In this document: positions 23,021 to 51,600 of the stretch, one piece after another
How positions within the stretch are numbered: the stretch's first letter is position 1
How the letters are laid out: each line of letters begins with the position of its first letter
Source: Bispira polyomma
Taxonomy: Eukaryota
NCBI GenBank assembly: GCA_965649765.1
Contig: OZ287757.1
Span: forward strand, 24,180,001 to 24,244,000
Length of the DNA: 64,000 nt
Direction: 5' to 3'
Notes under the pieces: generated by a model
What the model saw: the letters and a program-made list of their open reading frames with translations, nothing else
The model's database searches: none
Told to the model about the DNA's origin: nothing
Program-made: the position numbers and the translations under genes

Positions 23021-23054
<34 letters not shown>

Positions 23055-26000
23055 TTTTTTTAAATTTGTGGAATTTGTAGAATTTGTTGGAATTTGTGGA
23101 TTTTTTTTTCGAATTTTAGAAATTTGTGAAATGTGTGGAATTCTTGAAAATAGAATTTTTGAATTTTTTGAAAAGTTGCAGATGGTGGCATGGACCCTGC
23201 GGCCCAAAATTTAGTCCAAATCGCTCTATCTCGCACCGTTTGCGAGATATTAAGGATTTTTCATTTTCATCGTTTTGAAAAAACGTTTAATTAATCGTTA
23301 ATAAGTCTGGGATTTTGTATTGGATCACTTCCTAAAGTTATCTACTTCCAAACATCTATATAAGAAACCTTACACGTGAATTTTCTTCTGTATCCAAAAC
23401 AAGGGGAATTTTTTTTCACGCCTTTTCTATTGGCTATAGCTCAGCAACCACTGGCCGGATTCTCTTCATAGTTGGCACATGTATGCAGTAGCCCTGGGGC
23501 AAACTTTTTAATATGACGTCATCACATTTCAACCAATCAGAGAAGTCACATGACCAAACAAGAACAGAATGGAGGGGCCCTTGTAGGCCACAAAGATAGA
23601 TTGGTATTTGAGTGAATGTTGATCATATCGTCAATTATTTATACTGCAACAGCCTTACAAATCAGGCACGGTACAGCAGAAAGTTTTTCTTCAATCCAGT
23701 GTCCATCCAGAGCAAAAGTCTAAATTTCAAAGTTTCACTGGTGACCTAAGAGTCAAAATTTTATGACGACTTTAAGGTTACAGCGTGTTTTAGTCATTCC
23801 AGATTTTAACTCCGAAACTGCTTGATGGATTTTAGTTTGTATTTGGTACACGGATGTATATGGACCTGAGGATGAACCCTATTGTATGGATCACTCAAAA
23901 TGCCAATCTAGCTTTGTGGCCTACAAGGGCCATTCCATTCTGTTCTTGTTTGGTCATGTGACTTCTCTGATCGGTCGAAATGTGATAACACCATATTACA
24001 GTGAAACTTTCATGAATAACAGTTTTTCAAATCTACAGTATTTTTATCCTCAAACAAGTACTAGGGTCAGCCCCTTTATTTGCTACCAAGTGTATAAAAT
24101 TATATTACTGTGGTTAATAATACTAAAATACTAATATGTCATGTGATGTAATGTTTGTATGTCATAAGGTAGTAAATAAAATGGCCTAAATTATATCCAT
24201 CTTTTATTACTCTTGTTTCAAACCTTTGTACTGCTATGCAGAGGGAATACCAGACTGTGGCTTGAGTGGTTCTAATTAAGTTCAGTTGTATGACAGATTA
24301 TGGCTCACTCCAACAAGTGACAACTGCTGTGGGCCTAAAAACCCTAAATTTTGACTTTTCACTTTAATTATACAGATTACGGTAATTAAGCTGTGAGGTC
24401 AAGCTTAATAAAATACTCCTGCCCTTGCCATAAATTGTAGTATTATGGTAGTGGCTTCATCTTCAGGACATAAATAGTATATGTGTGAGTTAGTCTTGTG
24501 TGTAAATTATGTATCAAGAAAAAGTGACTCTTATAATATAATTGTGTGTGGTCTGGTTATATGGGCAGCAGATTAGTATTTCAGCGTGTGCTACAGGTTT
24601 ACAGTAGCGGCTTCAAAATGGGTTTAAAAAGGTTGAGGGTGAACTGTCTGAATTGGACAGCTATTCAATTCAAGCTATGGTCCAATTAAAAAATATAACT
24701 TACAGATCTTTGGCCCAGACAGGGCTTGTGTATATATACTGGGAATCTTGTGTCAAACTTCAGTTTTAAAATTGATACCAATGCTGATGCTTTTATTTAA
24801 GTGAGGGCTGACATAACCTCACATTGGTATCTTTTCCCCTCCCACCTTTATAATTGTTTTAGTGTTATAGTTAGTATATATATGTGGGGGTCAGCCCCTT
24901 TTATTCCTACTTTTTATTCCTACCAAGTGTATAAAATTATATTGATGTGGTTAATAATACTAAAATACTGTGATGTCATGTTTCTATGTCATAAGGTAGT
25001 GAATAAAATGGCCAAAATTATATCTATCTTTTACTACTCTTGTTTCACACCTCGGTATTGCCATGCAGAGGGAATATCTAAACTGACAAAAGATGATTCA
25101 ATAAATATAAAGCTCCCCCCCCCCCCCCCTCGAGCTTCCTCTGTGTGTGTGTATAAATTAGTGCACCCCCACCATACACACAAATAGTGAGAGTATCCTG
25201 TGTGTGTTTGTAGTTGTGGGCTTCCAGGCTGTAGTTTGTACAGTTCCCCTCCCCCCCCCCCCCCCCCCAATCCCCCTTGAAACTAGAAAACAGTTTTTGA
25301 TAACAAAAACGAAGCGTCCCTAAAGTTAAAATAATAATGAAATTGTTTAGTGTACAAGGTTTGATATTGTTTAAAAGTTGATATATAAGCAGAATCGGCA
25401 CTTTTGGTCAAATATAAGCTCGAAATCGCTCTATATAGCACCATTTCCGAGATAACAGACATTTTCGAAAAAGAAGCAGAAATTGAAGATGGTTGCCCAA
25501 ATCAAAAATTACTTCAAAAGTTTACATATAGGGCAAATCAGCCCTGTGGGTCGAAAATGAGCTTGAAATCGCTCTATCTAGCACCGTTTCTGAGATAAAG
25601 AACATTTTCGAAAAAGAGCAGAAATTCAAGATGGCCACCAAAATCGAACTTTTTTTAAAAGTATAAATATAAGCAAAAACAACCCTGAGGTTCGAAAATG
25701 AGCTCGAAATCGCTCTATCTAGCACCGTTTTCGAGATAATGGACATTTTCGAAAAAAGCACAGAAATTCAAGATGGCTGCCAAAATTAAAAATGTTTTTG
25801 AAAGCTTACATATAAGCAAAATCAACCCTGTGGGTCAAAAATGAGCTTGAAATCGCTCTATCTAGCACCGTTTCAGAGATAAAGGACATTTTCGAAAAAG
25901 ACGCAGAAATTCAAGATGGCTGCCCCAATTGAACATTCTTTTAAAGTTTACATATAAGCAAAATCAACCCTGTGGGTCGAAAATAAGCTCGAAATCGCTC

Positions 26001-27600
26001 TATCTAGCACCGTTCCCGAGATAACGGACATTTTCCGAAAAAGACGCAGAAATTCAAGATGGCCGCCAAAATTGGACATTTTTTCAAAAGTTTACATATA
26101 AGCAAAATCAACCTGTGGGTCGAAAATGAGCTCAAAATCGCTCTATCTAGCACCGTTTCCGAGATATTTGACATTTTCGAATGAGACGCAGAAATTCAAG
26201 ATGGCCGCCCAAATTGAAAATTTTTTTGAAAGTTTGCATATAAGCAAAATCAACCTTGTGGGTCGAAAACAAGCCCGAAATCGCTCTATCTAGCACCGTT
26301 TTATCTCAGTAACGATCGCATATTTTTGAATGGGGTAAAAAATAAATAAAAATTCAGGCTATTCTTTAAAAGTTACGCGCTGCATGTACTGGTCTAAAAT
26401 TAAAAATAAAAAAAATCATCACACGCTCAAAAAAGCACCCATCAACACATTTTTATCCCATTTTGTATGATTGATCGACCCTGTCAATCAGTCAATTATC
26501 ACCAGATTGATCTAAAAATTTACGGACATCTATGCTTTGGTATTTGCAACGTGCATGCTAAATTTCATTGAACTATGACAAGTACTTCAAAAGAAAAGTT
26601 GATAAAAGTGCAAGACAGAGCAAAATAGAGCAAACTACTCATTTGAAGTACTCAGTACTCATTGAGTACTGGACTTAGAACTGTGAGATTTTTACATCAT
26701 ACATAAAATCAAAAAGTAGATGAATAACTTATACCAAGAAAAAGCCGAAATCGCAATACTTTCTGAGATAGCAAAAAAGTACCGATTTTTCGCATTTCAA
26801 TAAAAATCAATCGGTTGGCAATCGGTCAATTATCATCCGATTAATCTCATCAGCGTCTCCCGTCCTGAAAATTGCCTTACCAAAGTACAAACCAAATTTC
26901 ATTGCGCTATGATGAATACTTTCTGAGAAAACCTAGTGACAAGCACTTTTACACCCCCAGGGTCACCTGACATTTAAGTAGGCCAAAGTTCAAGGCCAAG
27001 AATATCAAAAAAATTTCCCACTCCTGGTTAAGAGAACTGCCAAAAATCATTTTGATGCAGATAATATTGAAGGAGATATTCAAGGAAGACCATGCGGCGG
27101 CGGCGGCAGCGAGGAAACCAGGGGTGAAACAAAATAAGCGCCCTTTTCAAGGGACGCTTTATTAGTACATTTTGGCTTATAAATTTAAAAGTAGCACCCA
27201 CAGGATTCTAAAATTCACTTTAAAACATCTACAGACCATGCCAAACATATTCTGTAAATATGAAGTGACAACTCTTCATAGTTTCAGACATTACGTTGTG
27301 GACACATATTTCATCAACTTCTTCCATATATACACCCACCTTTCTTATAAGCTAGATGGTCATCATTGGCCAAAAACATGTGAATTTTCTCCTGTATACA
27401 AACAAGAGCCCTTACGGGATGCTTAATTACCTTAATAGACAAAAAAAGTGCATTAAAGAGACATTGAAACACAGAGCAGACATATACCAAAACCATGTAA
27501 ATAATAAAGAGCTCTTCAAATCAATAATCCATAATGTCTTACAAAAGAACACTGTATATATAAGTGTGCCATATGATCACAGAGTGTACATCTGGTCTCT

Positions 27601-27651
<51 letters not shown>

Positions 27652-30600
27652 GAATCCACCCAGGGACGACAGATTTTTTTTTTTAATTTAATCTAATAGA
27701 CAAGTTATGAAATATTTCTGTAACTGAATCTACTTCATGTGCCAACTAGTTGTAACTATATGATGTATACGTAGAAAAATGAATACATCTTTATAAGGAT
27801 GCAACCGAGAGCTCGACACTCGCTATACAAGCACATTTTTGCAAGGAATTGAGTCCATTTTTCCCACTAGACTACTCGCTAATATAGCAGATTATCGCTC
27901 ATACAATATAAAAGATGCATAAAATATAAACGTTAGCACATTTCGGCCTGGTTACAGTAAATAATATTTAAGATTTTGTCAAATAACCTACATTTTATTC
28001 AATATTCCTAATATGTTTTAAAATATCAGACAAAACTACAGGAAAACGCCCAAATTTGTTTCTGGTGTTTCCAAATGGTAAATACTAAACCACGCGAGTA
28101 CCCCAATTTGAGTCAGGTTTCCAAGAACGAGCACTCGAAGCAATTTTTTGCACCCGTCCCACCCCTACATCTTTATAGTGGACAGTTATAGTGAACATTT
28201 TGGCTGGGTCTGGTGAGTGTTCACTATACAGAACTTTTACAGTACACTACAGTAACTATCATTATGATGATTCTACCACCACCTTCCAGTGTATTAAGAA
28301 AATCAAGTAAATATTTTATGCCAAAGCAGTTAAAACATTGGAGAGTATTTATCATTCACACTAGAACCTCTATTATCGAAACTTCTATTATCCGAATATT
28401 TTTGATTTTATGAACAAATTTCCACTCATCCAATTTAAGGTTTTCCTATTGTTTGATAATGAATTACCTTTTGTACTTTATGAACTTTAGATAATAGAGG
28501 TTCTACTGTACACTGAGTATAAAGTGTGGAAGGTACGAAACTAAACCAAGCACAAAAATAACAAACTTGTACAAGAAACATCCTCTACCGATTTTCAAGA
28601 AATAGTCATTGATAACATTATGAATATACTGAACATTTTACTACATTTGGTTGGTTGGTTGGTTGGATTTTACGTCGCTTTAACAACTTTGCTCATATCG
28701 CAATGGCTAGATTTAGTGGTGGAAGAAACCAGTGCTAAACCAATGTAAACCGCCGACCGAAGGCAAATACCCGACAAACTTTCTCACATGAAGGAATAAA
28801 TGGGATTAGAACCCACATTGGTGAGAGGTCAGTGATTGTGAAGTAGGTATTCTAACCAGTAGACCATCGCAGCCCCTTTTATCACGTTTTGAAGCAAGGG
28901 GAAAGAAAGGTGAAGCCCAAGTGATTCTGCACCTTCAAATGTGGTATGCTTTCTGATTTTTCGAGATGAACCATTTTTGAATTTAATGTTATATTAAGAA
29001 AGCCAAATTCAATGGTGCAGGAAAGTAGTGCTGAAGCACTAAATCACCAATCTATGGTAAATCAGTTTTACAGTACACTAACATACCCACTCCTGTCATT
29101 TCCACCTTTTACAATGGAGTCTTGAGGTAATAACCTCGCCTTCTAATTTACTACAATTAATATATAATTTAATATTATCCTTCATTGGATGGGAGAAAGG
29201 TGGACGTCATAAACAGGCAAATTATTTCCTTGATGTGGCTTATCACAGTAGCAGAAGTCAAAGATGGCGATTTTTGTCAAAAAAAAAAAAATCCTTGTAC
29301 AGTAGAACCTCTATTATCCAAACTTCTATAATCTGAATATTTGATTTCATGGCCACCTTCCCACTCCACTAAATTTATATTTTTCTACTATTTTACAGAA
29401 TTTGAATATTTAACGTCCACTCTAGTTTAGGTTATATTGGGACGGGTAGTTAGAAACGCTGGAGGAAACACTGCATACAGTTGATCAAGATTCTGCACTG
29501 AAACCAGCGGCCCACAGTAAGGAACTACCACCTTTCCCACATTGGCATCGACGGTAGTCGAAGTCACGCAGCCCAGAGGTGAGAGACCAGTGATTGTGAA
29601 GCGCAATGCTTGCTAACCACTAGGCCACTGCGGCCCCATGTTTTACAGAGAAAGCCTCTTTTGTTCATGAACCTTCAATTATCCAAACAAAATCGTCCTC
29701 TCGACATGTTTGGATAATAGAGGTTTTACTGTACTTGTAATTATGAAGCCTAACTTACAAAAATAACATCAGATTAATCGTTTCTAGAGCCCAAGCTTTC
29801 CATAACCCCCTTTATCACACTGACGTATTAATTAGTACTGCCACTTGCTAGGCAGAAAATTTTTCGATTATCACTCACGCTTTCCGACCGAGTATCGACA
29901 AATATCGACATACATTTCCCCACACTTTATCAAATTGTTAATAACAAAAGAAACCCTTCTTACCTCTATATGGTAGATTATTATTTCCACATATTGATAA
30001 TATTTTGCACCAAAATATAAATTGATATAAAATATGAATCAATATATGATCCCAGATGCATTCACTAGGTGGCGCTATTGTATAGGTTCCTGTTTCCTGT
30101 GTAAACAATGGAAATGAGGCAAGTGCTTTTATTTAGTTATTAATATCATCCAGAAGTAGTAGTAAATGACACAAAAACGCACGGAAATTGCTGTAAAAAG
30201 GTAAATATAGTATATTATGTGTTACAAATGTGCTATCGGTTCACATTTTGACTTTCGACCATTGTCGGTTTTAGGTCCAGCGAGCGATAATATTGGAAGT
30301 AGCGAGTTTCACGGCAGCACCAGTATTAATAATTATAGATTCTTACCCAATGGAGTGAATGTTCCCGATTCCTGAGTAGTTAAATGTTTTGAATTCTCAT
30401 CCTCTCTACCCGTGGCTTCTGAAATTAAAACAATAAGTTGGGTCAATATACCCAAGGTCAAACTTAAATAACATTTTAATAAACCCTATTTATATACAAA
30501 TTCTTGTTTGGGTAAGAACTTACTTTTTTTACCTTTGCTTTTAACAAAGCTGTGGTGAATTCAAATATACAGTCAGATTTTACATATTTTTTTGTCCTCA

Positions 30601-33600
30601 AAGATAGGCTCACATTAAATTTGAGAAGTTTTGGCGGATACAGCCACAGAATATTTTATTAGAACTTTCAATGCTGAATTCAAATATACAGTCACATTTC
30701 ATGGGTTTTCTCTCTTGCTAGTTAGATTTGAACTTGACCTTGAGGTGAATTTCAACCTGAGTTGAGCTTGATATTAGTTTGGGGTTTTTTCTCATGATGT
30801 TTTGCAAATTAAATTTATATCTCAATATTTTAATGAAGATAACTTCTATCTATATACAACAAATGAAGTAAAATTATTATATAGTAAGACATCATTTAAT
30901 AACCTAGGTTTTATGTTTAAATGAATTTAAAACTGAATATGTCTTGTTATTTAATGACAAAGATTACTTAACTTACCTAAATATAAACTATTTAAAGATA
31001 TAATATTACTAATCAAGAGAAACAATCCCTATTTTTTTACATTTATGACTGATTAACAAAGACCAACATAACTGAAATTCTCATATTATGCACAAAAAAA
31101 ATAAAAATTAAACTATTACCATCTAATTAACCAGTGATATCGCGCAAGCAGCTTTCTCTTTTTAACTGTAAATTTTCTAAATACAATAACAACAGTAAAA
31201 CCTCTACTGTCTGAAAATGTTCAGAGGGAAAAATATTATTCAAACAATGGAATGTTTATAACCTAAAAGAGGCATGAAGGAAAACAGAAATTTGGAATCG
31301 TGGTAATGAGTTTGTCAAAATGTTAATGTGCTGTGTAATTGTTGGGTATTTGTTCATCAAATCGAATACGGCAGAACTCCTATTATCCAAACTTGAGTTA
31401 TCCGAATATTTATTCTCCCCAAATTTACGTTTTCCTGTTGTTTAATACAGTAATACCTCTTCTACTTGTAGAATATTTTTACTCATATGAACCTTCCATT
31501 ATCCAAACAAAATCTTGCTCCTTCATTCATGTTCAGATAATAAATGTTTTTACTGTATTTCGATAAGAGAAGTTTTAGACATTAGATAGTTTACTGTACA
31601 CTACTATAGTAAAGGGCAAAATTATTATATAAAAGCCATTCAGTCGTACCTAGTGGCATGTACTGTGTGCCAAATCTCTCTGAAGTTGTCGCCTTCCACA
31701 CAGGACCACTTTCTGGTATTCCTACACCACTCAGTTCTCTTTCATCTATGCCTGACAGTCTACTCAATGCAGCAGTTTTCTCAGGCGAGTCCACTTCTAG
31801 GATGGTACTTAAGTCTCTCCTCTCAAAGTCCCGATATGGTTGCAGTGGGGGTGGTTGTGTCGGTTGTTCAAACTGGTTACTTGCCACAGATGGGGTCTCG
31901 TGTTCATAGGGTTGTGAGGCGATATCTACCCGCATCTAAATATTACAATACTTCATTAAATTGATGCGAGGTATCTTCTAAAGCACAACAACTAAATCAA
32001 TCAACCAATCATGTGTCCTACAAAATATATCATGGGTCGTCATTAGAAAGCAATGGTCTGTTCACACATCTTGCCCAAGGATGTTATCCCACCAATGAAC
32101 CTAGTGGTATTAGCAGAAGTCGAACCAGGGACCTTCTGATCACCAGACCAACTCTCCCCTACTGGGAGATGAACCAGGGACCTTCTGATCACCAGACCAA
32201 CTCTCCCCTACTGGGAGATGAACCAGGGACCTTCTAATCACCACGACAAACTCTCCCCTACTGGGAGATGAACCAGGGACCTTCTGATCACCACGACAAA
32301 CTCTCCCCTACTGGGAGATGAACCAGGGACCTGTTGATCACCACGACAAACTCTCCTTTACTGGAAGTTGAACCAGGGACCTTCAGATCACCAGACCAAG
32401 TCCATGGACGACCATAAGAATGAAAGTTAACTATAACTAACCCCCTGTTTCGCACAGCCCTATTAAATACTACATAGTCATGTCCTACTATTTACATGTA
32501 GTATATTTAGTGTTAGACTGGGTAACGCAATATGGTTTGCTACAGAATATAGGGGCATTTCACAGTAAATGGTCACCATGTCAAGGAAATTGAAAGAATA
32601 TAGCCAAACTTTTGTTATTTAACTGAATTTTATTTACATATGATAAAATTGCATTGTTTACTATTTACCGCCATATTTGGTGAACACCAACAACCAGACT
32701 GACCAAATTTACAGGAATTGCCGGAAACTACTAAATTGCAGTGTTGTGAATGGAAAAAATTCTCAAAGTTAAAAATCTATTCTGCATCGATGATTGGTTG
32801 AAAATCTTTGTAATTAATCGACCCAGTAAAAATTGATAGTTAAGACACTAGTTGCGACACAGTTAAAAGTTTCCTACCTCAGCTTCACTGGTCAGGGTTC
32901 CTGCTGTTTGTACTGACTCCCGATACCTTGACATCTCACTATGGTCACTCACTGGCTCCGTCACCTGGTCAGTGTGTCGTCCACTGACTGGATCAACAGT
33001 TGGATACTGGATATGTGGTCTACTCAATGGGTCGATGATTTGATCGGTGAATCGGTCACTATACCGGTCACTCATTGGTTTAACAGTTGGGTCACTATAC
33101 CCACTCACAGGATGGTGAATATTGGTGTTAGTGTGGGCACTTGGCCCTGTGATGTTACTAGCATAGACTGGTGGTGGAGGAATCAGATCATGCTGGGTCA
33201 GTCCTAGACCACTTGTACTGGCCACCCCATCTGATGTAGTAGTGCTACTACCACTCACCCCAGAACTGTTAGTGTACATGGGCCTGGTGTTATAAACAAA
33301 CTCTGGAGTTGTCACAGAGGCTTGCTGAGAAGCCACCTGTTGTTCTAGAACCCTCCGGTGCAGGAGTGCATGATCGTCTGCGAGTGACCTTGAGACGCCC
33401 TCTCTAAGGTCAAGGTCAGCAGTACTAGGATCCATGGGTCTAGTGTCATACACAGACTGGGGAGTTGTCACAGAGGCCTTCTGAAATGCGTCTTGTTGTT
33501 CTAGAGCCTTCCGGTGATCATCCATGAGTGACCTTGGGATGCCCTGCCTAAGGTCAAGGTCAGCAGTAGTAGCAGTAGTACTGTTGTTCCTTCTATCTTC

Positions 33601-36600
33601 TGCCATACTCCCAACGCTGGGTCTTAACGGAAACATGGTGGTCTCTTCGCCATTCATCATTTGGCCAGCCGGCCTCCTCCCAGAGATGTCCTCTCCCTCA
33701 TGCATTGCGCTGAGTCTTGGCGAGATGTCCTTGAAGTAGCCCAGGGGGCTGGTGGTGTCAGGTAGCGGACTTACCCTGGGGAATGTGGGTAGATGATGAT
33801 GTTGGTGGTTGACCTTTGTCCCCTCTGCCACCTGAGGGGGTGGTACTGAGTTATAGTCACTCTTGGCCTTATCTAGCATCTCCTCCACTCTCTTCTGCAG
33901 ATCTTCCCGAGCCTGACGCATCTGATCCTGCTGGTTGCCATGGCGACGTAGCAGCTTCTCCTGATATTCTCTGACCCGCCCTATGTCTACAGATGAGGAA
34001 GCTCCTCCCGATGTTAGTGTGCTGGAGTGTGTCAGATCCAGTTGACCCCCTCCTGCTTCACTCGGTAAGGCTGAAAGTGTCTAATAATTTTTACTACTAC
34101 GAATAAATTTTCAACAAAATTATTGTCTTAGTGCAGCATCAAGGAAATTTCGACAAAAATTGGAATAATTTGAGACTTAAATCATGTTTAAAAACAAATA
34201 TCTTCATATGGAAATTACTAAGGCTTATTTGGATCAATTTTATTGTTTGAACATGTTATTCACGATAAGGAAAGAATCGTAAAATACAAATCTACAAAGG
34301 CTTCTTGCGGTAATACATTTACAAAACAAAGATGATCGACAAAGGAATGGAGGAAAAGGATGACAATGGTAAAATGCATCAGTTCAGGCAAATACCCAAT
34401 ATCTGAAAAATTCCCTATCTTAGCCTTACCTGATGTCCTGGTACCCACGCCTTGTAATATCCCTACGCCAGCTGCCTGTGGGACTATGTAAGACTGTGGA
34501 GGGTGACTAGTACTCCGTGTAAAGCGACCTGAAGCTTCCTGACTGCGAGAGTGTAACTCAAGTCTCTTCATCTCCAATTCACGCAGTCTGTCCTCAAGTT
34601 CTTGTTTTTGAGCTCTGAATAAATACAGTAGAACCTCTATTAACAGAACTTTCTATCATCTAAACATTAAATTTTATAAAATCATTTCTACTTTCGCAAA
34701 TTTTATATTTTCCTATTGCTATATAACATATACTGAATATTAATCTTATTTTTATTTTATAATCTTATTATATAAACTCTTCTATTATCCAAACGAAATC
34801 TTGTGACCAACCTTGATTTCTAATATTATTTGGTGGCCAACCTTGTTTTTCAATACTATTTGGTGGGCAACCTTGTTTTCCAATACTATTTAGTGGCCAA
34901 CCTTGTTTTGCAATACTATTTGGTGGCCAACCTTGTTTTTAAATGTAATTTCAACTCTTAGAACCTCGGTGAAAGCGGTTGTAGTTCTATTACTCTGTTA
35001 CATCAATGCTACTTACTCTAGATGTTGCCGTCTCTGTTCCGCTTCCTGTTTAATTACTCTGTTCTCCCTGGAGATCTCCTCCTGTTGTCTCCTCTCTTTA
35101 GTCAGATACTGGCTGATCCCATTGAGGCGGGGCTAAAACCACAGACATTAGACGGTAAATTGTGTATCAATATTGACAATATTAATTTTTAGGGCCGTTG
35201 GGTGCCGATATCAATGTCGCAAAGGATACTTATTTCACCTTCAACAACACTTGTAAAAACAATTTTATACCATTTGAAGTGTGTTGTTACTTGTAAACAA
35301 TTTAATGGTTCACACTTCCTGTTTTTATCCAGGCAGATTGTGTTGTTTTAAAAAAATTGTATGTCCTGATATCGCCCAATGTTGAACTAATTTTGCCTTT
35401 GATATCAATCTTGTGGTACAGTGCATAATATGGTGGAATGTCCATATAATTTATATTTAATGGTTGTTAAAAATACAGTAGAGTTATTACTTTCCAAATT
35501 TACTTTTCCACTTTCCCAAATTGATATTTTCCTATTATTTTACACTAACATGCCTCTATCTATTTCATGGACCTCCATTATCCAATCAAAACCTTTCTCT
35601 CCGAACATGTTTGGATAACGAGGCACCTTTGTGTCTTATAAATTCAATAGTTTTAACCTATTCTCTGCGTGCTTTTTTTGTCTTTAATCAGACCTTTCGC
35701 AGCCGACAATATAGTTTTGTTTTAAGCACGACATGGTAAAATATTTTTGGGGCATGTAACTGATACAAAAAACATTTGATTAAGGAAGAAAAAGAAGCAA
35801 ATTTCAAATTTAAAAGCCTATCGAATCAACAAGAACCAACTACTATACTACTACTAGATATACTAATCTGTGTCAATCAAACTCTTTCTGTCCTAACACG
35901 TTTAGATAACAGCATTACTACTACTAGATCCTTACCTGTGTCTGTCTCAGCTGAGCTGCCTTCTCTAAGGGATGACTTAGTGTCTGCAACTCTGGGAAAA
36001 CAAAAAAACACACCAATATAATCCCACCAAAATCATATAACTCTGTGTGTCCATATCAATACACAGCTTTTACCACAGTGATGCAACAGAGCTTACTTTA
36101 TCTTAGATAAGGTATTTCTGTAAATTAAATAAATAATAATTAAAGCTTTTTTTTTTAATTAACATAAAATTTAAAATTCACATAACAAATTCTAGGATTG
36201 TACAAAAATTTCTAAAGGCACCGGTCTGTTAGTGCGACAATAATAGTATATGACGCAAATTTACCATTTGCTCAAATTAAACATTGTCTTACAGTTGAAA
36301 TCCTCTGAGTCAAATCTCAAGGGACCAGGAAAAATACGTCTACTTAAGCAGAATTTGCTTTTAACAGAGTAGATTTTAAAAGATAAAGCTTTTTGTGAGA
36401 CTACACCCTTACCTCCCACATCAGACTGGGTAGGCCTACTCTCTGTTATAGTACCACTAGATGTAATAGACCCTTCCTCTACAGAAGAATGCTCTGTCTC
36501 TCCAAGACTTTGTGATTGTGTTGACATTGTAGATTTGGTCTCCACTTCCCCTGTAACAAAAGAAACACAGCACAGTGTTTGACTAGTTAAAAACAAACAT

Positions 36601-39600
36601 CCACACTTATTAGTAACCCACACAGAGGGCTCTGTCCTAACCTAAATTAGGGGTGAGGTAAGGTAGAGCTTGGGAAAGTCCAGGTTAGGAGAAATCTGTT
36701 GATATAAACACTCATTCATATTTCTGTTCTTTATTTGTCACAACAGTTAAACACACATTATGTGGTTTTTCCCCTGAGCTTCTGGCACAGCCTACTCCAG
36801 CTGTTAGGAGTGAGAGGCCACGCTGTTCTCACTCCAGTTGCAGTGGGTTATATACAGATGTAGTCAACATTATTATAGTTAGGAAAAGCTTAGTAGCTGC
36901 TCTCAAGCCAATAGGAATTTGCTTATGTAAATTAGCGCTTATTTTCGTTGTAACAAATTCTAAGGCGCAAAAAATCACTGCCAGAGCCAAAAATCATTGG
37001 TGATAGACAGAAAGAAGTCATCATCAATACGTATATCGAGAACAGGAAAGAGACTATGAAGGGAATGCATCATTAAACAGATAGGTCTTTACACTGCGCT
37101 GAAAGAAATACAGGGACGGGGCTGTCCTAATGTGTTGAGGCAAACTATTCCATAGGGTAGGAGCATCATTTGTAAAACTTTTATCAAACTGAACCTTTGA
37201 CCTGTGCACTTTGGACTTATATTTTGGAAGAAGAAGGAATCTATTTTTGGCAGCAGCATGCATGGTATTACCATTACACTTGTTGTAACACAAGTATGGT
37301 TCAAAATATTTAGGCAAACCCGAATCAATATATATCAACTTATATACCATTATAGCAGTTTAAAAACACACCGATACCTAACAGGGAGCCAGTGGAGTGA
37401 CCTTAGAATCGCTGAGGCATGTAAAAGCCGAGCAGAACAACTGACCAGACGTGCCAATGAATCCTTGATGCATTGCAATTTGCTTAGGTTCTTTTTGATC
37501 AAACTACAACAGTGAATTGCAGTAGTCCAGTCTGCTGCCTACCAGAGTATTTGCTGCAGTTATTGCAACCGATTTTGGGAGGTACCTCCTGATTCTCCTA
37601 AGGTCTCTAAGACCCATAAAGCATGACTTACACACTGATTAGATATAACTGGAAAAAAAAAATCACTATCAAACAAAACTCCCAGGTTCTTCACTTTATC
37701 AGTTAGGGATAACAGTGTCCCAAGAATGTTTACTGGAAAAGAATTTGACAGTTCAGCACGTTCCAAACAAATACAACACAACACCGTATACAAATAAAAT
37801 ACACAAGTACAGTACAAGTACAATATAAGTACAAAACAAAATACATGACAAGATACCACAATTCAACATACAATAGAAAAACAACACTTACAACAAATAC
37901 AATACAAATACAATACCTATTATACAAACACCCCATACCTGTGGAGAGAGTGTCGACTTCTGACCTCTCCGTGACCTGTTGTGAACCAGTTTTCGTGTCA
38001 GTTGACCTTACAGTGTACTGAGTCAAGCTCTGGTCAGCTGACTCTGCCCTCCTCTGACCGCCGGGCTGACCATTACTGGCTCTGACCCAGGTCTCTCGCT
38101 GACATTTGATCTTTCCTAGGAGTTGCTTGAGACCTGTGTCTGGGGGCTTACTGGTGTCCAGGATCTGCCTGACTGTAGACTCTCCCAGACTGGATTGGGC
38201 TAAGTCTGGATATAGAGGGGCGAAATACAGTTGAACCTCTATTATCCGAACATGTTGGGAAAAATTTTGTTTAGATAATAGAAGGTTCATAGAATAGAAG
38301 AGACATTGTTGTATAAAACAAGAGGAAAACTTTAAAGGAGAGTGAATTTAGGGAGAGTGGAAATGTGTTCAAAAATGGAATTCCCAGACAATGGATGTTT
38401 GGATAATAGAGGTTCTACTGTTTTGGGATGGTCCAAATATACAGTAAAACCTTGACTTACTGGAGTCCAAGATCTGTCTTACAGTGGACTTTTCCAGACT
38501 GAATAGGGCTAAGTATAGAATTATAGTACAGTAGAACCTCTATTTTACAAACTGCTTGGGAGAGTTAGAATTTGTTTGGATAATAGAAGGTCTGTAAAAT
38601 AGAAGTGACATTTTAGTATAAAAGAATAACAAAAATAAGTTTGGGGGAGTGAAATAGAGTCTGTAAATTGAATATACGGATAATACAGGGTCGGATAATA
38701 GAGGTTCTACTTTAAATAGAAGAGATGGACAAAGTATTGTAATGGTCCAAGGCCCGTATTCTTGAAAGAAACTCAAGCTCAGACTCCCAAACAATATGGA
38801 AATTGTTACATGGAAGGAACCTATACTCTTTCCCCTCCTATTGTTGCAGGAGAAAAGGAGAGCAGCAAGGTAGGAGGGGCTGTTAAGGCTGTGAGAGTGA
38901 ATATTTAACAGAGAGCATGACTAGTAGTCACAAAGATTCTTTTTAAACTCAGCAAATTCTGGTTCTCAGTTAACACTGAACATATGTGGTTAGTGAGATA
39001 TATTACTGATAAACACTAAGTACCTACCTTTACTGTGTTGTGTAAATGGAGCTCTAGGTACCGATTCATCCAGTGTAGTCACTGAAGACTCATCTGTAAG
39101 AGCAGCAGGGACAGGTTCAGAGTCCAGGATTAAGTCTTTCACTTCCGACGACTGGCCTAATAGTGTGGAAGTATATACAGGATATAACATGTAAGGTAAG
39201 ATGATGAGTAATTTTTATAGCGCCAAAATTGATGGCCAAGTAAACCATCTATACAGATAACCATTGGACCAGTCCAGGTACATCACAAGGTTCATAAGAA
39301 AGGTGTGGAGTGTGCACTGAGTGAAGCTTAAGGAGAATAAGCCTGCCTATAAAGGCTTTAGGGTTTTTTCCTGATGAGATAAAGTGATGTCTAGGAATCC
39401 TCTAGGGTGCACCATCTGTAGAGTTAACCATTACAATAGTCCAGGCAAATTACAGGTTTCATTAGGAAGATATGGAGTAGAAGGAATATGCCTGCCTGAA
39501 AAGGTAAGACATTAGGCTAATTCTGAAAGCGCTCAGACTTGTCTGTGTATGGATAACAGTAGGAAGCTTGTTTAATTCATTTGGAGCTGGATAAGTAAAG

Positions 39601-42600
39601 CAATCACTAGTAGCCTTTATTTTTTGGAACAACACTTTGAGACAGAGGGTTTGATGAACAATGGCCTTAAAACAAGATCATTTTGACAATAAGACTATAC
39701 CTAGCTTAGTGTTGGATGGATAATTAAGAATAAATTAGTTTGGACTTGACATCGTTTTTCACACATTTTGAGTCATATCATGATGGGCAGTTCACACTGG
39801 TGAATGAAATCAAAAGAAGGGGTAGTTGGTCATGAGTTTCTGCTCTGCAACCACCGGCCTTCAGTAAGTCTACTGCCAACTTTCCAACATGATGAATATG
39901 CAAGATTAAATTATACCTTAAGAGGAAATTCATTGAATGATTTAGTTATTTTAGCTCATGATATTTAATTAGGATTAGTTTTTCGGTGTAATAATCATGA
40001 TATTAACACAATTTTCAGATGACAATTTATGTCTTTTACTTCTGTAAACGGGCATAGTGGTGGAGAGATAGGTAACAGCTCAACAGCTCAGGTCATATAA
40101 TGGCCAGTTGTTTTTTTTGTAAGAGAAACCAGTGCTCAAGCACTGCAAGTCATGGACCTACACCAAGTAACTTTCCCACATTAAGGAATAAATAGGATTC
40201 GACACACATTGGTGATTGTGAAGCAGGGGCTTCTAACCACTAGGCTACTGCAGCTTTTTAGTATTTAATTTTGTTTTTAACAACCACAGGTTATTTATAA
40301 AATCCCAACATCCATGTCAAATAATAAGATTATTCAGTACAATGTGGGGCTATGTATATCGTACCTGCTATAAACATGTCCTCAAATGCCCTCTCCATGC
40401 CTTTCTGCTGTTCATCTAGTTCCTGTAGTCTGTTAGAAGGAGGTATAAAGATCTGCTTCTGTAAACACAAACATGCCACTTGGAAGTACTAAATATCTAT
40501 TATATATATGTTACAGTCAACTTGTAAAACCAGTCATTTCGTGTAATGACTGAAATTATGGTCCAGTCATTATGCATCATTTTCGAATGCAATTTTTTTG
40601 TTTAATTTAGCATTTTTTATCCTTATTTTTCATACTTCATCTTCTTTATGTGTAATAAAAAATGGCACAAAATGTTAACTGTTTACTGTTAAATGTAACA
40701 TAAAACATATTTATTTGATAAAATATGCATAAACACCCATTTAGTACTGCCTATTAGGACTAGATATTCATAATATAAATTTCCTATGACTAAAGATAAC
40801 TGTGGTTAATTCCATTAATACACATATACAGTATTCAGTAGACCATAAGTGTACATAAAATATCTAAAACATGTCTTGCAGAACATTTAGGATCATCAAC
40901 ACTTAGTATACTGATATTATCAATCATGTTTAATAGTCATAATCCTGTATGTGTGCTAACTTTATTACTGATCTGACTCCTGCTTATTTTCTGACTATTT
41001 TCTATACATATTTCCATAGACACTGGCTCATCGTAGGTTAAATCTCCAACACAAGAAGGTCTATACACATAAGCTGATACCTACAGACAAGTAGATCACC
41101 TTTATACTTAACATCTATATAGTATACACAGTTGACCATTCTGACATCTATAAACAACTTCACAGTCAGACATGAGAAAAATTTAGACAAGTTGACCACT
41201 TTTATGGTCATACATAAGACACATTTAGACAAGTTGACTACTGTTATGGTCATACATAAGACACATTTAGACAAGTTGACCACTGTTATGGTCATACATA
41301 AGACACATTTAGACAAGTTGACCACTGTTATGGTCATACATAACACACATTTAGACAAGTTGACCACTGTTATGGTCATACATAAGACACATTTAGACAA
41401 GTTGACCACTGTTATGGTCATACATAAAATACATTCAGACAAGTTGACCACTGTTATGGTCATACACAAAACACATTTAGACAAGTTGACCACTGTTATG
41501 GTCATACATAAGATACTTACTGGTAAGTTAGCCACAACCTTCTGTCTGCGTACTCTGTCTGACTTTTGGAGGTCACTCAGTTCATGTAAGATGTGGCCAT
41601 AGTCCTGAAAATAAGTAAATACAGTTACAAAGTGTAACATTATTTTAAAAATTAAAATTTCAACAAATTCACTTTTTATTTACATTGTTTTTCTTAGAAC
41701 CAGTTAATATTCAGTTGTCAGTTAGTTTGATAAACCAACAACTGGTTAATAAAAGGTCAGCTCTTGATCACCAGCAGATCAAGACATCCATTATGACTGA
41801 CTGCCCTGACAAGTCTACTTTAGCTAACTAACTATACACACTCAACAGATTACGATGTTCCTGATCTAACCGCCATGACATCCCTATTCCCCCTAACCCA
41901 CTGTACACACTCACCAGATTGAAACGTCCCTTATCTACCCGCCATGACATTCCTATTCCCCCTAACCAACTGTACACACACTCAACAGATTAAGATGTTC
42001 CTGATCTAACCGCCATGACATCCCTATTCCCCCTAACCCACTGTACACACTCACCAGATTGAAACGTCCCTTATCTACCCGCCATGACATCCCTATTCCC
42101 CCTAACCAACTGTGTACACTTACTAGATTGAAACGTCCCTTATCTACCCGCCATGACATTCCTACTCTCCCTAACCCACTGTACACACACTCACCAGATT
42201 GAGACGCCTCATATCTACCCGCTATGACATCCCTACTCTCCCTAACCCACTGTACACACACTCACCAAATTGAGACGTTCCATATCTACCCGCTATGACA
42301 TCCCACTCTCCCTAACCCACTGTACACACTCACCAGATTAAGATGTTCTTTCTCTATCTGACCCCCCCCTTCACCCACACCACCCACAAACCCACTGTGT
42401 AGACTCACGAGATCAAGACGCTCCTTCTCTAGTGCCACCTTATGTCGGACTCTGGCTTTCTCCCGCCTTTCAATCTCCACACGTTTCTTCTCGGCCTCCA
42501 CATCATCGTAACGCTCACTCTCAAGCTCTGCTGTCGCCTTGGCACTGTCCTAGTAACCAATAGCAATGTAAGACATGTTTATTTCATCATAAAAACTAAG

Positions 42601-45600
42601 TTGATCTTCATAGATGGGAAAATGACATGATTACATTTCTTGCATACAAAAAGTACCAGTAAATAATTTTGGTTGTGATCAGCGAGCTTGGTATAATCAT
42701 GGTACAGAACATGAAATGTGTTTTTCCACTTTTGCCTTGTCAGAAACACAGTTTGGAAATTGGAATTTACATTTTACGGTGGTGTCAACAGCTGGCCTGG
42801 GGTCATAATACAACAGCAAAATATAATGGTGGAAGAAACCAGTACCAAAGCACTGTAAACCATCAAAATATGGCAAGTACATGACAAACCTTCCCACATG
42901 AAGTATTCAAACCCACATATTGGTGACAGCCCAGTGATAGTGAAGCAGGCATTTCTTACCACTAGACCCCTGGGAACGCCAAGGATCTGGGTTTGATCCA
43001 AGCCAGATTTTTAGTAACTCAGATAATTACAAAAAAGTACCAGGCTGGTGAATCTTAGAGATGTCATTCTGGAGCTCTATCTAGTGCACATTGAGTTGTC
43101 TGTGACGTACCTGGTCAAGTTGCTGTTCTTTGACCACACCATACTCAGCAGGTATATGGTAGTGTGTGGTTTAGTTATATGATATACCTGGTATATGGTA
43201 GTGTGTGGTTAAGTTATATGGTGTACCTGGTATATGGTAGTGTGTGGTTTAGTTATATGACGTACCTGGTATATGGTAATGTGTGGTTTAGTTATATGGT
43301 GTACCTGGTATATGGTAGTGTGTGGTTTAGTTATATGATGTACATGGTATATGGTAGTGTGTGGTTTAGTTATATGACATACCTGGTATATGGTAGTGTG
43401 TGGCTTAGTTACATGATGTACCTGGTATATGGTAGTGTGTGGTTTAGTTATATGATGTACATGGTATATGGTAGTTTAGTTATATGACGTACATGGTATA
43501 TGGTAGTGTGTGGTTTGGTTATATGACGTACCTGGTATATGGTAGTGTGTGGTTAAGTTTTTTGACGTACCTGGTATATGGTAGTGTGTGGTTTAGTTAT
43601 ATGACATACATGGTATATAGTAGTTTAGTTATATGACGTACATGGTATATGGTAGTGTGTGGTTTAGTTATTTGACGTACATGGTATATGGTAGTGTGTG
43701 GTTAAGTTATATGACGTACATGGTATATAGTAGTTTAGTTATATGACGTCCATGGTATATGGTAGTGTGTGGTTTAGTTATTTGACGTACATGGTATATG
43801 GTAGTGTGTGGTTAAGTTATATGACGTACATGGTATATAGTAGTTTAGTTATATGACATACATGGTATATGGTAGTGTGTGGTTTAGTTATATGACGTAC
43901 ATGGTATATGGTAGTGTGTGGTTTAGTTATTTGACGTACATGGTATATGGTAGTGTGTGGTTTAGTTATATGACGTACCTGGTATATGGTAGTGGGTGGT
44001 TTAGTTATAGGACGTACCTGGTTGAGTTGTTGTTCTTTCACCACCCCATACTCAGCAGGTATATGGTAGTGTGTGGTGGAGAAGGCGTCGTGATCTGTGA
44101 ACTTGACTGGCTTCACTAAACACAAAATACAATGAAACACTAGTAACCATGGGGCGTATTGAGTTAACACATATTAATTAAGAGTGAACCATTTTAAGTC
44201 CATTCTTGCTTGTAAACAATTAAGCGCTTTGCACCTCCTGTTTCGTTGGGGCAGAGTTTTGTTTTGTTTTGAAGAAATGTTTTAGTTCCTTGGCATGTCC
44301 GATATTGGCTAATATGGAACTAATTTTGCCTTTGATATCAATCTGTTGACACGCACAACCTACTTACTTAAAACGACAAAGAGCCGTCATTAGCGGACTA
44401 ATTAGCAATAAAAGCGACTTACTTTGAGCAATCTGTAGTTCATCCACTGGATCTTTTTCAGGAGGAGGTTTTGAGGCAATATAAGAAGCCCTGTCTTTCT
44501 CTTTCTCAAGGGCATCTTGTCTGAAAAATATTGTTTCATCAACTTGACATAAAATACTAGCATAGCACTCAGTATAGATCATACATCCACCAACGACCCA
44601 AAAAATCCTGCTCTTTCTACCCAAATCTGCTTTAATACTCAATAGATTCTTTCTTGGCCCATTCCCTACCCCCACCTCAGCAATAACCCAATAAATTAAC
44701 TTAGTTACGCTTTGGTAAATCAGCCTTACCCACCCTAGCTACTTAGTTTCACTTTGGTAAATCGGCCTTACCCAGCCTAGTTGACTTAGGTAAAACACTT
44801 TCGTAAATAAGTATTATTTTTTTCCTTATCCACACTTATTTAACATTAACAAATTATTATTTCATTGACTTCCTTCCTCGCCCCAATGTGCTTGGTTTCA
44901 CTCGCTGTAACAATTCATTCTTCCTCCCCTATCAAGACTTAACTCACTGTAACAAATCATTTTTCAGTTCCTTCACTAATCCACATTCCTCACTGTGACA
45001 AATCATTTTTCCATAATCTTCTGAAACATAACCTGGCTCTGATGTGCATAGTTTATGCCACCTCTTTCTGTAACAAACCATTCTTCAATTCCCTCAGTTA
45101 TCCACATTTGCCTAATTGGGCACTTTAGTGGAAAACTATACACTAAAGTAATTTTCCACAGAATTCCTATTTTAGGGCTACCCTCACTGTAACAAATCAT
45201 TTTTCCTTCCCAAACATACTTTCCTTGCTGTGCCTGGTTTCTTCCATCGGTCCCTGTAACAAATCATTCGCCAGTTTACCTATATCCTTGGCTCCCTGTA
45301 ACAAATCATTTTCCATAACTACCCAACACATACCTAGCCCTAATTTGCCTGGTTTCTGCCATCTCTCTCTGTAACAAATCATTTTTCAGTTTCTCCAGTG
45401 CTTTCTGTCCTCTCTCTAACATCACTCTAGCATCCTCCTGTTTTACTAACAGCCTATCCTCTAGCCGACCATCCACGTCCTGTAACAAAATGTACAAACA
45501 AATCATTTTTACACTTGTTGTGATCCATATTCACGAAAGGACTTAGCCAGGTCTTAGGCTTAAATCAGTATAATTTTGTGCTTGATTTAAGCCTAAGGCA

Positions 45601-48600
45601 TGGCTAAGTCCTTTCGTGAATATGGGGCCAGTAAAATATAACACAAGATATATATATATCTTTTCTTGTTGCCACTGGGAACAAGACACAAATCTTAAGC
45701 TTAAGATTAAGTTAAAACTGTGACCTTTTGTGAATAAAATAAAATAACCACAAATGGGGTTAAAAATAAAAATAACCCCTGATATGTTATAACACCCTGA
45801 AACAGCAGTATAAAGTAGTCTGATTATTTGCATACTTTAGAATTACTTCCTGTGACATATTTTACTGCATTACCTCATGGTTGCGGTCAAATGAGTTCAA
45901 TACGATCATAATCTAAATCCTTTCTCTAAAAGGAATTGAAGTCCCTTTGAATGATCAAATGCAGTAAACCGTTATACTTTACCTTTTATGTATGTTTATC
46001 ATGTTCTTAAAGTCTTTGAAACTAATCCAGCGTAAAAGTTTATGAAATATAATGGATTAATCATTTGCTTAGTGTTAAAATTACATTGTACACTAAGACT
46101 AGCATAAGGTAGTCTGGTGTATTTTAAACATAAGGACCACGTAAAGACTAAGACATTTTGCAAATATAGCCCCTAAAAACCTGACATTTGCAATATTGCA
46201 ACCCAACTTACCTGCTGTTTGTTATACTATGATTTTTACACTTCTAAGTAAGTCAAGTTTAAATGGAGTTGGACACACAGATCTGTGGATTGGTCATAAA
46301 ATTACACAGGCTCCAAACATTATTTCGGTTGAGAAACGGCTTTTTAAGTTTTACAAAAATATGGACATGCCAAAAAATGATGGACTGCTTTAGAAACGTA
46401 CATTACTCGACATTCTGTGACATATTTAATATTTTTCTTTAACACTGTTTTTTTTTATGGAGGTCACTGTTTCGTAAAGCTCAATCTACAAACCAGTACA
46501 CTACAATTTGACTATAATTTGAATTTAGTTGGGTTTTGCAGTTTTATGTTACTTTTAACAATTTAGGTCAGATCACAACAGCCAGATTTAATGGTGGAGG
46601 AGACTACTGGACTACAGCAAGAACCCTGACAAGCTTTTCCATATGAAGGAATAGAGACTACAAAGTAAATCAGTTGACCAGGGGCTGTAGTCACAAACAT
46701 TCTTAGAATGCAATTCTTGGAATGTGCTTAGTCTCAACCAATCAGATTCATTAAAAAAAATTTTTAGCCAATCAAATTGCTTGAGGCAAAAATTTAAGAG
46801 TAAGAATCTTTGTGAATATCCGTCATGGTCTGAAAATCCATCAACATGTCAATACAAATTAAAAGGTAAAACTAGTGGGGGTCAACATCAATGGTCAATA
46901 CAACTTAACAGGTAAAATTAGTGGGGGAGTCAACATGCAATGGTCAATACAACTTAACAGGTAAAATTAGTTGGGGGGTCAACATGCAATGGTCAATACA
47001 AATTAAGGGGTTAAACTAGTGGGGGGGTCAACATGCAATGGTCAATACAACTTAACAGGTTAAACTAGTGGGGGGTCAACATGCAATGGTCAATACAACT
47101 TAACAGGTAAAATTAGTTGGGGGGTCAACATGCAATGGTCAATACAACTTAAGGGATAAAACTAGTGGGGGGGGGGGGGGGGGGTCAACATGCAATGGTC
47201 AATACAACTTAAAAGGTAAAACTAGTGGGGGAGTCAACATGCAATGGTCAATACAACTTAACAGGTAAAACTAGTGGGGGGTCAACATGCAATTGGTCAA
47301 TACAACTTAAGGGGTAAAACTAGTGGGAGGGTCAACATGCAATGGTCAATACAGTGGATTTGGTCAAACTCGAATGGCCAAAACTCGAAAGTAGCCGAAA
47401 TTCGAACGAATTTCCGATCCCCAACAATTTATAGTTTAATCTTAAGGAAATCCTCGAACATTCGAGCTACCCTTAAAGTCATTATTCGAAGCAAATTTCT
47501 GACTTTAAGGTTAAGTTTAGTATGGGGAAAAAAGGGATTACTCGAATCAAATAACGGACCGATCAAATAAACAACTTACCAAATAAATCAAAGCATATAA
47601 TCCGCCATTGAAGCTACACAAATGAAAAGCCATCTATCCTTTTAAAAACCATATCAAAGCAATGTTAGGGGATTATGTAAGCCGCCATTGTCACTGAAGT
47701 TAAACAACTGAAATGCTAACTTTCCTTACAAAATGTGATCAAATGGGTACCGCCATTGTTACCAGTGCTTTGTTGTTAGTGGTTGGCGCTAAACCTCCAA
47801 CATCAATTAAGGTTGATTGCAATTTCTAATTTCCCCCCTAAAAATTTGAATTTTTCAATTGGGATTAACTCTTGGTCTGATGAGTATAAATAGGGGTAAC
47901 AACTTACAGTTATTATTCAGTCCTGAGATATTATTCAATATGGCAACTAAGCGAAAAATGATTTGTATAATTATAGTAGTTTGAGTTCGTCTGAGTGTAT
48001 AGGTTGTTTGATTTTCGTTTTAGTATGGACCTTTTGTCGCAAAATATTAGTTTTGTAACAAGGATATAAAAAAGACATTAATACAGAGTTTTAGCATTTT
48101 TATTGTAAGTAAACATATATTCAACATGTATAAATAAAATAATTTGTTGTTTATGTTTAATTATATGTGTTAAAACGTGTTCAATTTTGGTGGAAATGAT
48201 AAATATGGTATTATCGCCCACTATTACTGATAGACTTCCATCACTCGACGATTCACAAAAGAGTTTATCACAACTCGAACCGGTCATTATTCGAACAAAT
48301 TTCACTGCTTTTACAATATTCGAGTTTGACCAAATCCACTGTACAACTTAAAAGGTAAAACTAGTGGGGGGGGGGGGGGGGGTCAACATGCAATGGTCAA
48401 TACAACTTAACAGGTAAAACTAGTGGGGGGGAAGTGTTTATTAACGAGGGGGTATTTACAGTAAATCTGTTTTCAGTAGCCCACCCTACCTCCTCCACTG
48501 CTGCTACATGAGCCTCCCCTACATGTTTGAGGTTTTTCTCATACAATTCCTCCAACTGTTGTAGCTTGGCTTCCTTGTCCACTTCCCAGTTCTCCTGTTG

Positions 48601-51600
48601 GGGAAAATAAGAGAGGAGATTGTACAATGTATACATATACTTACTACATGTATACTGTAATTAGTACATGTACTGGTGAAATACAGGGAAATATACAACT
48701 CTATGACAGGGAACATATTGTTACTTACATATAATAAACACAAGTCAGTGTTCTCTTAGAGCAGATACAAAGATATTATTTACTACAGGCAATCCCAACA
48801 TACACACTGTATATGTCACCGTAAGAGTGTTGTTTTGATGTAGGTGATATTTGGGGGATTTTCAGTGATGTTTGACAGCAGTATTTTGAATCAAGTGTTT
48901 CCATGAAGGCAATACTAATAGGTGACTGGCCACATTAGGCAATTTTTCCTCTTGTTTGGTACTGCATACATTTCCTGTTATTATTCAATTTAACTTGATA
49001 ATGCAAAACTCGAATAAAAATCTGGCAACTTTTTTGATAAAGGCATGGGAATGTAGAAAAAGTCTTCTGTCTAAATAATAAAATTGTATTTTGTGCAGAA
49101 TTATGTTTTCAAACATATTGAATTATTGTGCTAAAACTGTAATAATAGTAAAATAGCATAAAATTAATGTAATATATTTGAAATATTAGTAATAGTATTT
49201 GTGCCAAATTATGTATTTACACACATTGAATTATTGTGCTTGAACTGCTAAAACTGTATTCATGGTAAAATAGTATTGAATCAATGTCATGTTCGTCTTT
49301 ATAATATCTTGAAATAATTTACATGCTAAACCTGTTTTTTGTGTATTCATTAAATTGTCACTAATGAGCCCATAGGGGCTGGGAACTACTATTCTGTTTA
49401 TGTTATTGTTATTAAACATTGATATGTTCTAGTGACAGAAATAAACGAATAAACTAAAAACTATTACTCGAAACCGCGAAAACGTTGCACTTTTTGCTTG
49501 TTTATAATAATCTGGCATGAAAATGGCACCACATTGTCTATATGGAACGTTAAATTCAGCTGATTGCCTATCACGTGTTAGCCATTTTCTAACAATAGCA
49601 TTTTAGATAGAACTCTTAGTCTGATTTAAAGGGTGTAACTAAATATTAAAGCTATTACTAAACTGCTACAAATGCGTCACTAATGTACAAAGCTATCAAT
49701 TTTAGTCACCTCCCATATCTTGCTTCATTGTGGTCTTTCAGGGTGCTTACTAAAGGAAACAGAATCTCAGTCTCTAATAAATGTACTAGAACAAGTAAAC
49801 AGATTGAAACTTATGCTTTCTCTGTTGCAGAACCTATACTATAGAATAATTTACAAGCCAATATCAAATCCAAGTGTACCCTCTCTGGTTTAAAAAGCAA
49901 CCTTAAAACTCACCCCTTTAATCTTCCCTAGTAATTTTTCTTATCCATGTCACCTCCACAATCATGAACATGCTCTGTGAAAGGACTTTGATTTTCACCA
50001 CTTTGTAAATGATATTGAACTTCAGAAGATGCCTGGTATACTTGAGGCACGTTAAAAATCCATAATAGCATATCATCATATCATAAAGTGTATATATTCA
50101 CACTATTTATGTATATTGTGTGTAGAATCACTCACCTTAATTTCCTCTGCCAAAATCTGAATTTGTTTTTGTTTTTCTGCCTTCACATCCTTTAAAATAT
50201 TCTTGGAGATTTCCTTGGATTGTTGTCTGACCTATAAAATATGAATACAAATTGTGACTGAAGTAAAAGTCTACAATTTGTAGAAATTTCCAATGAGAAA
50301 AACCAACGTATTCTTGTAAAATACAGTCACACCTGAATATTTGACCATTCTCAAAAGATAACTTACAAATTGTAACAAATGTCAGACATGCCCACAAGTT
50401 TTATATTAAAATACATGTGTAGACCTTTTAGAACAACCACTCTCAAGTTCCGACCATGTATGTCTTCCCATGAAGTTCATTTACCTTGTAAACTAAAGAA
50501 AGTAATATTCTATGTGGATACTGCACAGTACATGTGTCATACACTAGAACCCATTTATGTTGAACCTGAAGTAGGGCTGCATCGGGTACAGTCGGTATCG
50601 TCAGTACGGGACCATTTTATGTGCCAACCGAGTACAAAAGTCAATGTCGGTATTTCGAAACTGCAGACTTTTTACTGTAAACGAACAGGTAACCATGTGT
50701 ACTGAATCATAATCATAAAAATAGGTTTGATGTTTACAAATTATTGAAATTTGAGGTTTTTTAATGTTTAGTCATTTTTAGGTAAACCGGTTTCGTGTAC
50801 TTCCGATTCTGGAGGGTATATTCGATTGAAAGTAAATGGGTTTATTTTGTTTGGGGTATCCTGGAATTGGAACGGTTTTTGATAAGCAACATCACGGACG
50901 CTTATTTTTGCTACCGACACACCCCTTACCTTAAGAGACCAGGAGGAATAGTTCTGCTTAACCAGGATTTCCACTTAACAGAGTAGATTTTAAAAGAGAA
51001 GACTGGCATGGGACTACAAATTTCTTATCCACATGAAAAAGAATTTGACTTAACAGAGTTCTAGTTAAAGGGGTTTAACTGTAGATAATTGATTTCCTAA
51101 TCCAGTGGCTATTAGCAGATATTTACTCTGACAATTGGAGGGGCCGTGGTGGCCTAGTAGTTAGCAAGCATTGCGCTTCACAATCACTGGTCTCTCACCT
51201 CTGGGCGGCGTAAGTTTGACTCCCATCGATGCCGATGTGGGAAAGGTGGTAGTTCCTTACTGTGGGCCGCTGGTTTCAGTGCAGAACCTTGATCAACTGT
51301 ATGCAGTGTTTTCTCCAGCGTTGCCAATTATCCGTCCCAATATAATCTAAACAGGTACTAGAGTGGACGTTAAATATCCCAATTCAATTCAACTCTGACA
51401 GTTAGAGCAGTGAGTGTATTGGGCATGAGTGACGGTTGGTCATGAAAAAAAATTGCTGTTATTTGTAGCGCATATACTGTTATTTTGCTTCTCAGAGAGA
51501 CGAAAAATTGTTGTGATCCCCAGGTTTCTATACATATATTACATGGAACCTGTAGTTGTTCAAATTAGGGGCGTGTCGGGCCAAAAAAATGCAGCCTGAG

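Follow-up and report, generated by a model that had tools for sequence, protein, structure and literature searches.

Coding exon 6 of a likely CEP295-like gene, within the 64,000-nt stretch of Bispira polyomma DNA analyzed here (the window), is followed by a minisatellite of the 'mirage' type, a kind already known from amphioxus (lancelets), at the far edge of which lies a second and most likely silent copy of the exon 6 3' end. We consider it quite probable that this arrangement arose through tandem duplication of the exon end and the start of its intron, with subsequent expansion of the duplication junction into an array that moved the two long copies apart.

The 3' end of exon 6, on the minus strand at 44077-44018, reads TTHYHIPAEYGVVKEQQLNQ followed by gtacgt, and its distal copy, on the minus strand at 43170-43111, reads TTHYHIPAEYGVVKEQQLDQ followed by gtacgt. 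The two pieces were identical at 55 of 60 nt (blastn E 7e-20 inside the window), with 907 bp between their donors and with identical donor 9-mers. No mismatch occurred in the opening 32 nt, and the five that followed comprised four synonymous differences (GGG/GGT, GTG/GTC, CAA/CAG and CTC/CTT) and one changing an amino acid (AAC/GAC, N/D). An earlier note on this DNA had reported a second exon end with an intact donor 907 bp away, differing chiefly at synonymous sites plus N/D, and both observations were reproduced. When the exon was used as a query against the whole genome, three matches were returned (itself, the distal copy and one array unit), the distal copy being its sole long second match. 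The features of the locus are collected in Table 1.

Table 1. Features of the exon 6 locus and its host gene, in window coordinates
Feature	Position	Strand	Basis or remark
Coding exon 6 of the likely CEP295-like gene, 98 nt, phase 1 to 0	44018..44115	minus	Exon joins E1-E11; TTHYHIP/TTHFHVP likeness to P0001
Duplicated piece, last 60 nt of exon 6	44018-44077	minus	Sequence comparison
Minisatellite, 22 short units (39 bp in 18, 32 bp in 4)	43188..44017	minus	Unit analysis
Final 17-nt copy of the intron start, ending in TAA in the exon 6 frame	43171..43187	minus	Sequence
Distal exon-end copy with identical donor 9-mer	43111..43170	minus	Sequence comparison
Unique rest of intron 6	42550..43110	minus	Gapped likeness of its start to the 17-nt intron piece
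Coding exon 7, 141 nt	42409..42549	minus	Own 3' end copied in 69-bp array 41824-42356
Host gene, likely CEP295-like, at least 22 predicted exons	7287..52023	minus	ALMS motif in last mapped exon; roughly placed after E11

The assignment of the host gene as likely CEP295-like was based on a match of the last mapped exon to the ALMS motif (PF15309; E 5.5e-5, 24 bits, below the cut-off of 27) and on an apparent resemblance of the N-terminus to that of CEP295/KIAA1731. The 11 hand-placed exons (E1-E11, 52016 to 36413) joined without a stop, and the label 'exon 6' used earlier agreed with our own count of coding exons. The ALMS motif is given for CEP295, ALMS1 and C10orf90 in PMC4958302. Homologue searches scored no named or close homologue; exon 7 drew six short unnamed homologous proteins, and one of these, P0001, carried TTHFHVP opposite TTHYHIP of exon 6, being unalignable or too diverged near the N/D site. 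A metagenome scan for outgroup sequence gave no relative, and a protein atlas search with P0001 gave no usable match. Elsewhere in the gene, the large exon 14 contained an internal 144-nt duplication (33277-33572, 76% identical), intron 3 held a 49-bp array (46848-47353 and near 48360-48440) interrupted by about 1 kb of inserted sequence, and a tRNA-Asn(GTT) gene (27595-27668, plus strand) lay in an intron on the opposite strand. Upstream of the gene, a 24/48-bp repeat at 54366-54871 was open on the minus strand for 148 codons, which would read as an acidic repeat. A 341-codon open frame at 500-1522 (plus strand) looks like a retrotransposon tyrosine recombinase.

Between the two donors we found 18 units of 39 bp, four of 32 bp and one, the final unit that contains the distal copy, of 77 bp (77 + 18 x 39 + 4 x 32 = 907), the 22 short units having a 39-bp period with 86% matches. 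A short unit consisted of the 17-nt intron start, up to 20 exon-derived nt and AG or AT, so that, taken from the last AG of the exon through the 17 nt of intron to the 20 exon-derived nt, it spans the exon-intron boundary; the exon-derived nature and the sequence of the 39-bp units were as described earlier. GT began 22 of the 23 units, the remaining one beginning with GG, and the full CAG-GTACGT was present at five of the 23 unit starts with the real donor counted. At the ends of the 22 short units, CAT instead of CAG was seen in 13, and CAG followed by GT in nine.

With the short units taken out, the locus reduces to two exon ends separated by 17 nt, as a simple tandem duplication of 77 bp would leave them. 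The 39-mer is contiguous in the junction of these two copies (from the final AG of copy one, across the 17-nt intron piece, to nt 20 of copy two), and therefore neither a deletion nor a third full copy is needed to explain it. It occurred exactly twice, and in 19 registers at up to three mismatches, and it was bordered on both sides by ACC, a 3-nt microhomology with a local chance expectation of about 6%; to judge from these letters, slippage at ACC was likely behind the expansion of the 39-bp unit. The earlier note had described a fusion of two non-adjacent exon pieces by a microhomology-type deletion that was then amplified. The pieces look adjacent or not according to the point chosen as the start of the unit, the junction piece itself being contiguous, and while the microhomology is there, the deletion of the exon end is superfluous. 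A model of deletion followed by amplification is possible, but it requires a third full copy and was dropped as less simple.

The order of events would, according to this arrangement of units, have begun with a 77-bp tandem duplication that took in 60 nt of exon end and some 17 nt of intron, followed by expansion of the 39-bp junction piece by slippage between the two ACC triplets, and finally the rise of the 7-bp-shorter, 32-bp units. Such expansion would have carried the second copy, most likely silent, to a distance of 907 bp, with its first 20 nt kept identical as part of the array, and both long copies would have ended up as brackets because the array grew from inside the duplication junction. 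None of 19 other arrays (at least four copies, within 1.3 kb) showed this layout, with short units flanked at the far edge by an outermost copy of full length.

Two exon ends could also be alleles that the assembler had set in tandem, the circumstance that the earlier note had named as able to overturn its reading. The DNA evidence came from contigs of three runs (X1-X3) of a single study, with no more than two samples among them; these runs may be the assembly's own source. Such an artefact would find room in the fact that the 32 nt common to both ends are longer than the 31-letter words from which the contigs were made, and no contig linked the exon start to either end. However, the depth in X2 was 15.7 at the proximal end, 18.6 at the distal end and 18.4 at the array-to-distal junction, with flanks at 15.4 and 18.6, and in X3 the corresponding values were 15.0, 17.0, 16.5, 14.7 and 16.1; X1 was noisier (116, 89, 81, 75 and 83) and likewise without half depth. 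Both copies and the unique flanks thus stood at about 1:1, which argues against alleles, expected near half depth, as support and not as proof. The distal copy, moreover, lacks the first 38 nt of the exon and is joined cleanly to the array. With single-copy depth at both ends and no half-depth pieces, we regard a mis-assembly as extremely improbable, and a genuine tandem duplication is preferred.

Could the distal copy be spliced, as a 33-nt in-frame microexon (YGVVKEQQLDQ), as an alternative exon 6 or as a recursive splice point? Its donor scored 11.3, equal to that of the real donor with which it shares the 9-mer, all five differences fall within its final 33 nt, an open stretch of phase 0-0, and CAG precedes GT in the nine units mentioned. 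The scores were derived from matrices trained on the host gene and 195 exon calls, the called set being partly circular. For the acceptor side, all 13 AGs upstream of the distal copy scored 1.9 or less, as compared to 3.0 at the 5th percentile of called acceptors. The two in-frame acceptors scored -8.6 (a GAG, giving the 33-nt piece) and -0.9 (giving a 12-nt piece), and GAG was used by none of the 22 hand-placed acceptors of the host gene. Every CAG acceptor of the array yields a frameshift or a stop, a TAA in the exon 6 reading frame lies directly upstream of the copy, and direct use of the distal donor leads to a stop after 66 codons. By these predicted signals, the distal copy lacks the combination of a usable acceptor of its own and an open frame that a functional duplicated or alternative exon would have. 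A recursive splice site is a strong acceptor that abuts a donor in a very long intron; here, the CAG-GT units scored 1.1-1.9 as acceptors and intron 6 is 1468 nt long. The acceptor or recursive site that the earlier note had proposed to look for was not found among these candidates, and the mirage papers cited here (PMC3087553, PMC3902484) report no aberrant mRNA. Splicing of the distal copy is in our judgment very improbable, and by its predicted signals the copy is most likely silent.

The prevalence of synonymous differences had been called unexpected for a copy that alone had been changing neutrally. That statement holds, since at least four synonymous changes in five have a P of 0.008-0.016 (about 0.01) if only the copy changed, but it uses the wrong null: silent sites of the working exon continue to drift, and a synonymous bias is therefore expected. 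When the exon was allowed to drift silently as well, codon-based nulls for exon 6 alone gave P of 0.03-0.09. An empirical null was built from 195 of 200 exon matches to the myosin head and kinesin (five omitted as near-identical paralogues or stop-ridden), of which 177 exons were kept after dropping weak splice calls and duplicates; copies were sought on the same strand within 1.3 kb, with exon ends that were predicted and not RNA-mapped. Copies were carried by 43 of these 177 exons, in 47 events of which 43 spanned the boundary, and the longest copies of the 47 events showed 91 synonymous to 100 non-synonymous differences (48%). Against this genome sample, four of five synonymous gave P=0.16 (Fisher 0.20, with five differences only). 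Sibling copies in the host gene, one per exon, gave 20:27 and P=0.11 for at least four of five, the ratio being 25:32 with a doubtful E10 copy included.

In the 32 events with multiple copies, the differences fixed between the exon and all copies were 25:10 synonymous to non-synonymous, as compared to 119:209 within the copies, which is the pattern predicted by silent drift on the exon side. From these comparisons we infer that drift in the working exon, added to neutral change on the side of the copy, accounts for the silent differences. When an exon is compared with a copy in its intron, silent-site bias is, by itself, no sign of a working copy.

A further possibility is that the two ends have at times swapped roles, through unequal crossing-over or gene conversion in the common 32 nt or by capture of the copy from another allele, in which case both sequences would have spent time under protein selection. 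The absence of any difference from the first 32 nt (post hoc P 0.018 under a uniform distribution) would fit with this, as would a pooled 4-fold/0-fold ratio of 2.8 (bootstrap 2.1-3.7) exceeding the value of 2 predicted from exon drift and a neutral copy (P 0.011-0.046), a 4-fold divergence of 0.24 as compared to 0.12-0.14 in the intron part, and a likelihood ratio of about 1.9 in favor of 'both constrained' when set against the empirical rate. However, 20 of the 32 identical nt are common to the array itself, the five sites showed only the letters of the two copies and no half-depth pieces were seen (three runs, at most two samples), and the 0-fold sites of copies mutate like intron sites. 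Private copy changes in 24 arrays numbered 87/3842 (0.0226) at 0-fold sites and 84/3824 (0.0220) in the intron part, a ratio of 1.04 (0.76-1.41), with 0.031 at 4-fold sites and a ratio to intron of 1.41 (0.96-1.95). Copy singletons gave 1.69 (1.15-2.35) in a looser test and 1.36 (0.94-1.87) under a stricter definition; the looser tests had suggested constraint on the copies, a signal that weakened once the stricter test took the intron part as its reference. Among 25 events with at least four differences, none reached 80% synonymous and three reached 75%. Exchange is unlikely, yet it retains a small share of probability because of the ratio of 2.8, the looser singleton value of 1.69 and the absence of events at 80%. 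It is likewise doubtful, though conceivable, that mirage copies form a spare stock of exon ends, with recombination sometimes swapping a distal version into the working exon and becoming visible as a genome-wide silent excess; if true, exon-end turnover via copies would be a testable route of splice-site and exon-end renewal. Drift in the live exon beside a neutral copy remains the preferred reading.

Boundary copies were also found for other exons of the host gene, namely E1 (acceptor side, 52064-52145), E4 (44877-45315), E17 (15896-16960, including far copies 0.8-1.0 kb out), E22 (6845-7254, units differing from the exon by 4:2 synonymous) and E7, for which a 69-bp array at 41824-42356 combines the exon 3' end with the start of the next intron, and perhaps for E10. 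For predicted exon 10, a copy of the 5' part (38456-38514, 38205) was seen upstream, and the sequence before this exon also precedes exon 13; the 5' part may be an exonised dispersed repeat, the E10 copy then being no boundary duplication, and the copy statistics for the host gene were computed with and without E10. A 42-bp array directly after exon 8 (41165-41513) resembled the exon 8 end by eye, without a blastn match. In the genome sample, three near-identical myosin exons on three contigs (L008, L009 and L010) had the same boundary array with 10 to 22 detected copies, and array length therefore differs between recent duplicates. A kinesin donor-side array (L081) had units with internal deletions of the exon part.

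No preference of duplication for splice boundaries was found in this sample, with local copies spanning 47 of 358 true boundaries and, at a distance of 500 nt in the intron, 62 of 358 control positions, which may themselves fall inside arrays. Since boundaries were not duplicated more often than nearby intron positions, boundary copies may simply follow from a high local rate of duplication. The exon 6 locus by itself is of little importance and ordinary for its genome; boundary copies in about a quarter of the sampled conserved exons (43/177) are a genome-wide trait and a trap for gene prediction.

Mirages were reportedly first described by Canestro in 2002. The genome studied here, of 1.04 Gb, is larger than those of lancelets. 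A narrow literature search found no prior report of silent-site bias in boundary copies and no genome-wide invertebrate survey of such copies. In the earthworm metallothionein gene, duplicated copies of exon 4 are untranscribed according to PMC12783039, a case that resembles ours in that an invertebrate gene with minisatellites in its introns carries intragenic exon copies, which there do not enter the final transcript, but that concerns exon duplications in one clone and not boundary-spanning arrays. For the 37-bp VNTR in intron 7 of human F7, the first donor wins (PMC1557585), as determined with minigenes, whereas donor choice at exon 6 is here a matter of analogy: as reported for mirages and F7, the spliceosome would use the first donor and ignore the later ones. 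In amphioxus, mirages are described as tandem duplications of exon-intron boundaries in Adh3 and the globins BflGb6 and BflGb9, with splicing undisturbed and with edge copies that escape homogenization (PMC3087553), and further mirages are given for troponin C and PGBD5 (PMC3902484). By its sequence, the array at exon 6 belongs with these: it is a tandem array of minisatellite-sized units (22 short units, 39-bp period, within the 10-160 bp reported for mirages), the units lie across an exon-intron boundary, and they repeat its splice signal in many but not all cases (GT in 22/23, CAG-GTACGT in 5/23). Unlike the amphioxus mirages, it appears to comprise two nested steps, a 77-bp duplication and then a 39-bp unit, and it has a longer copy at its far edge.
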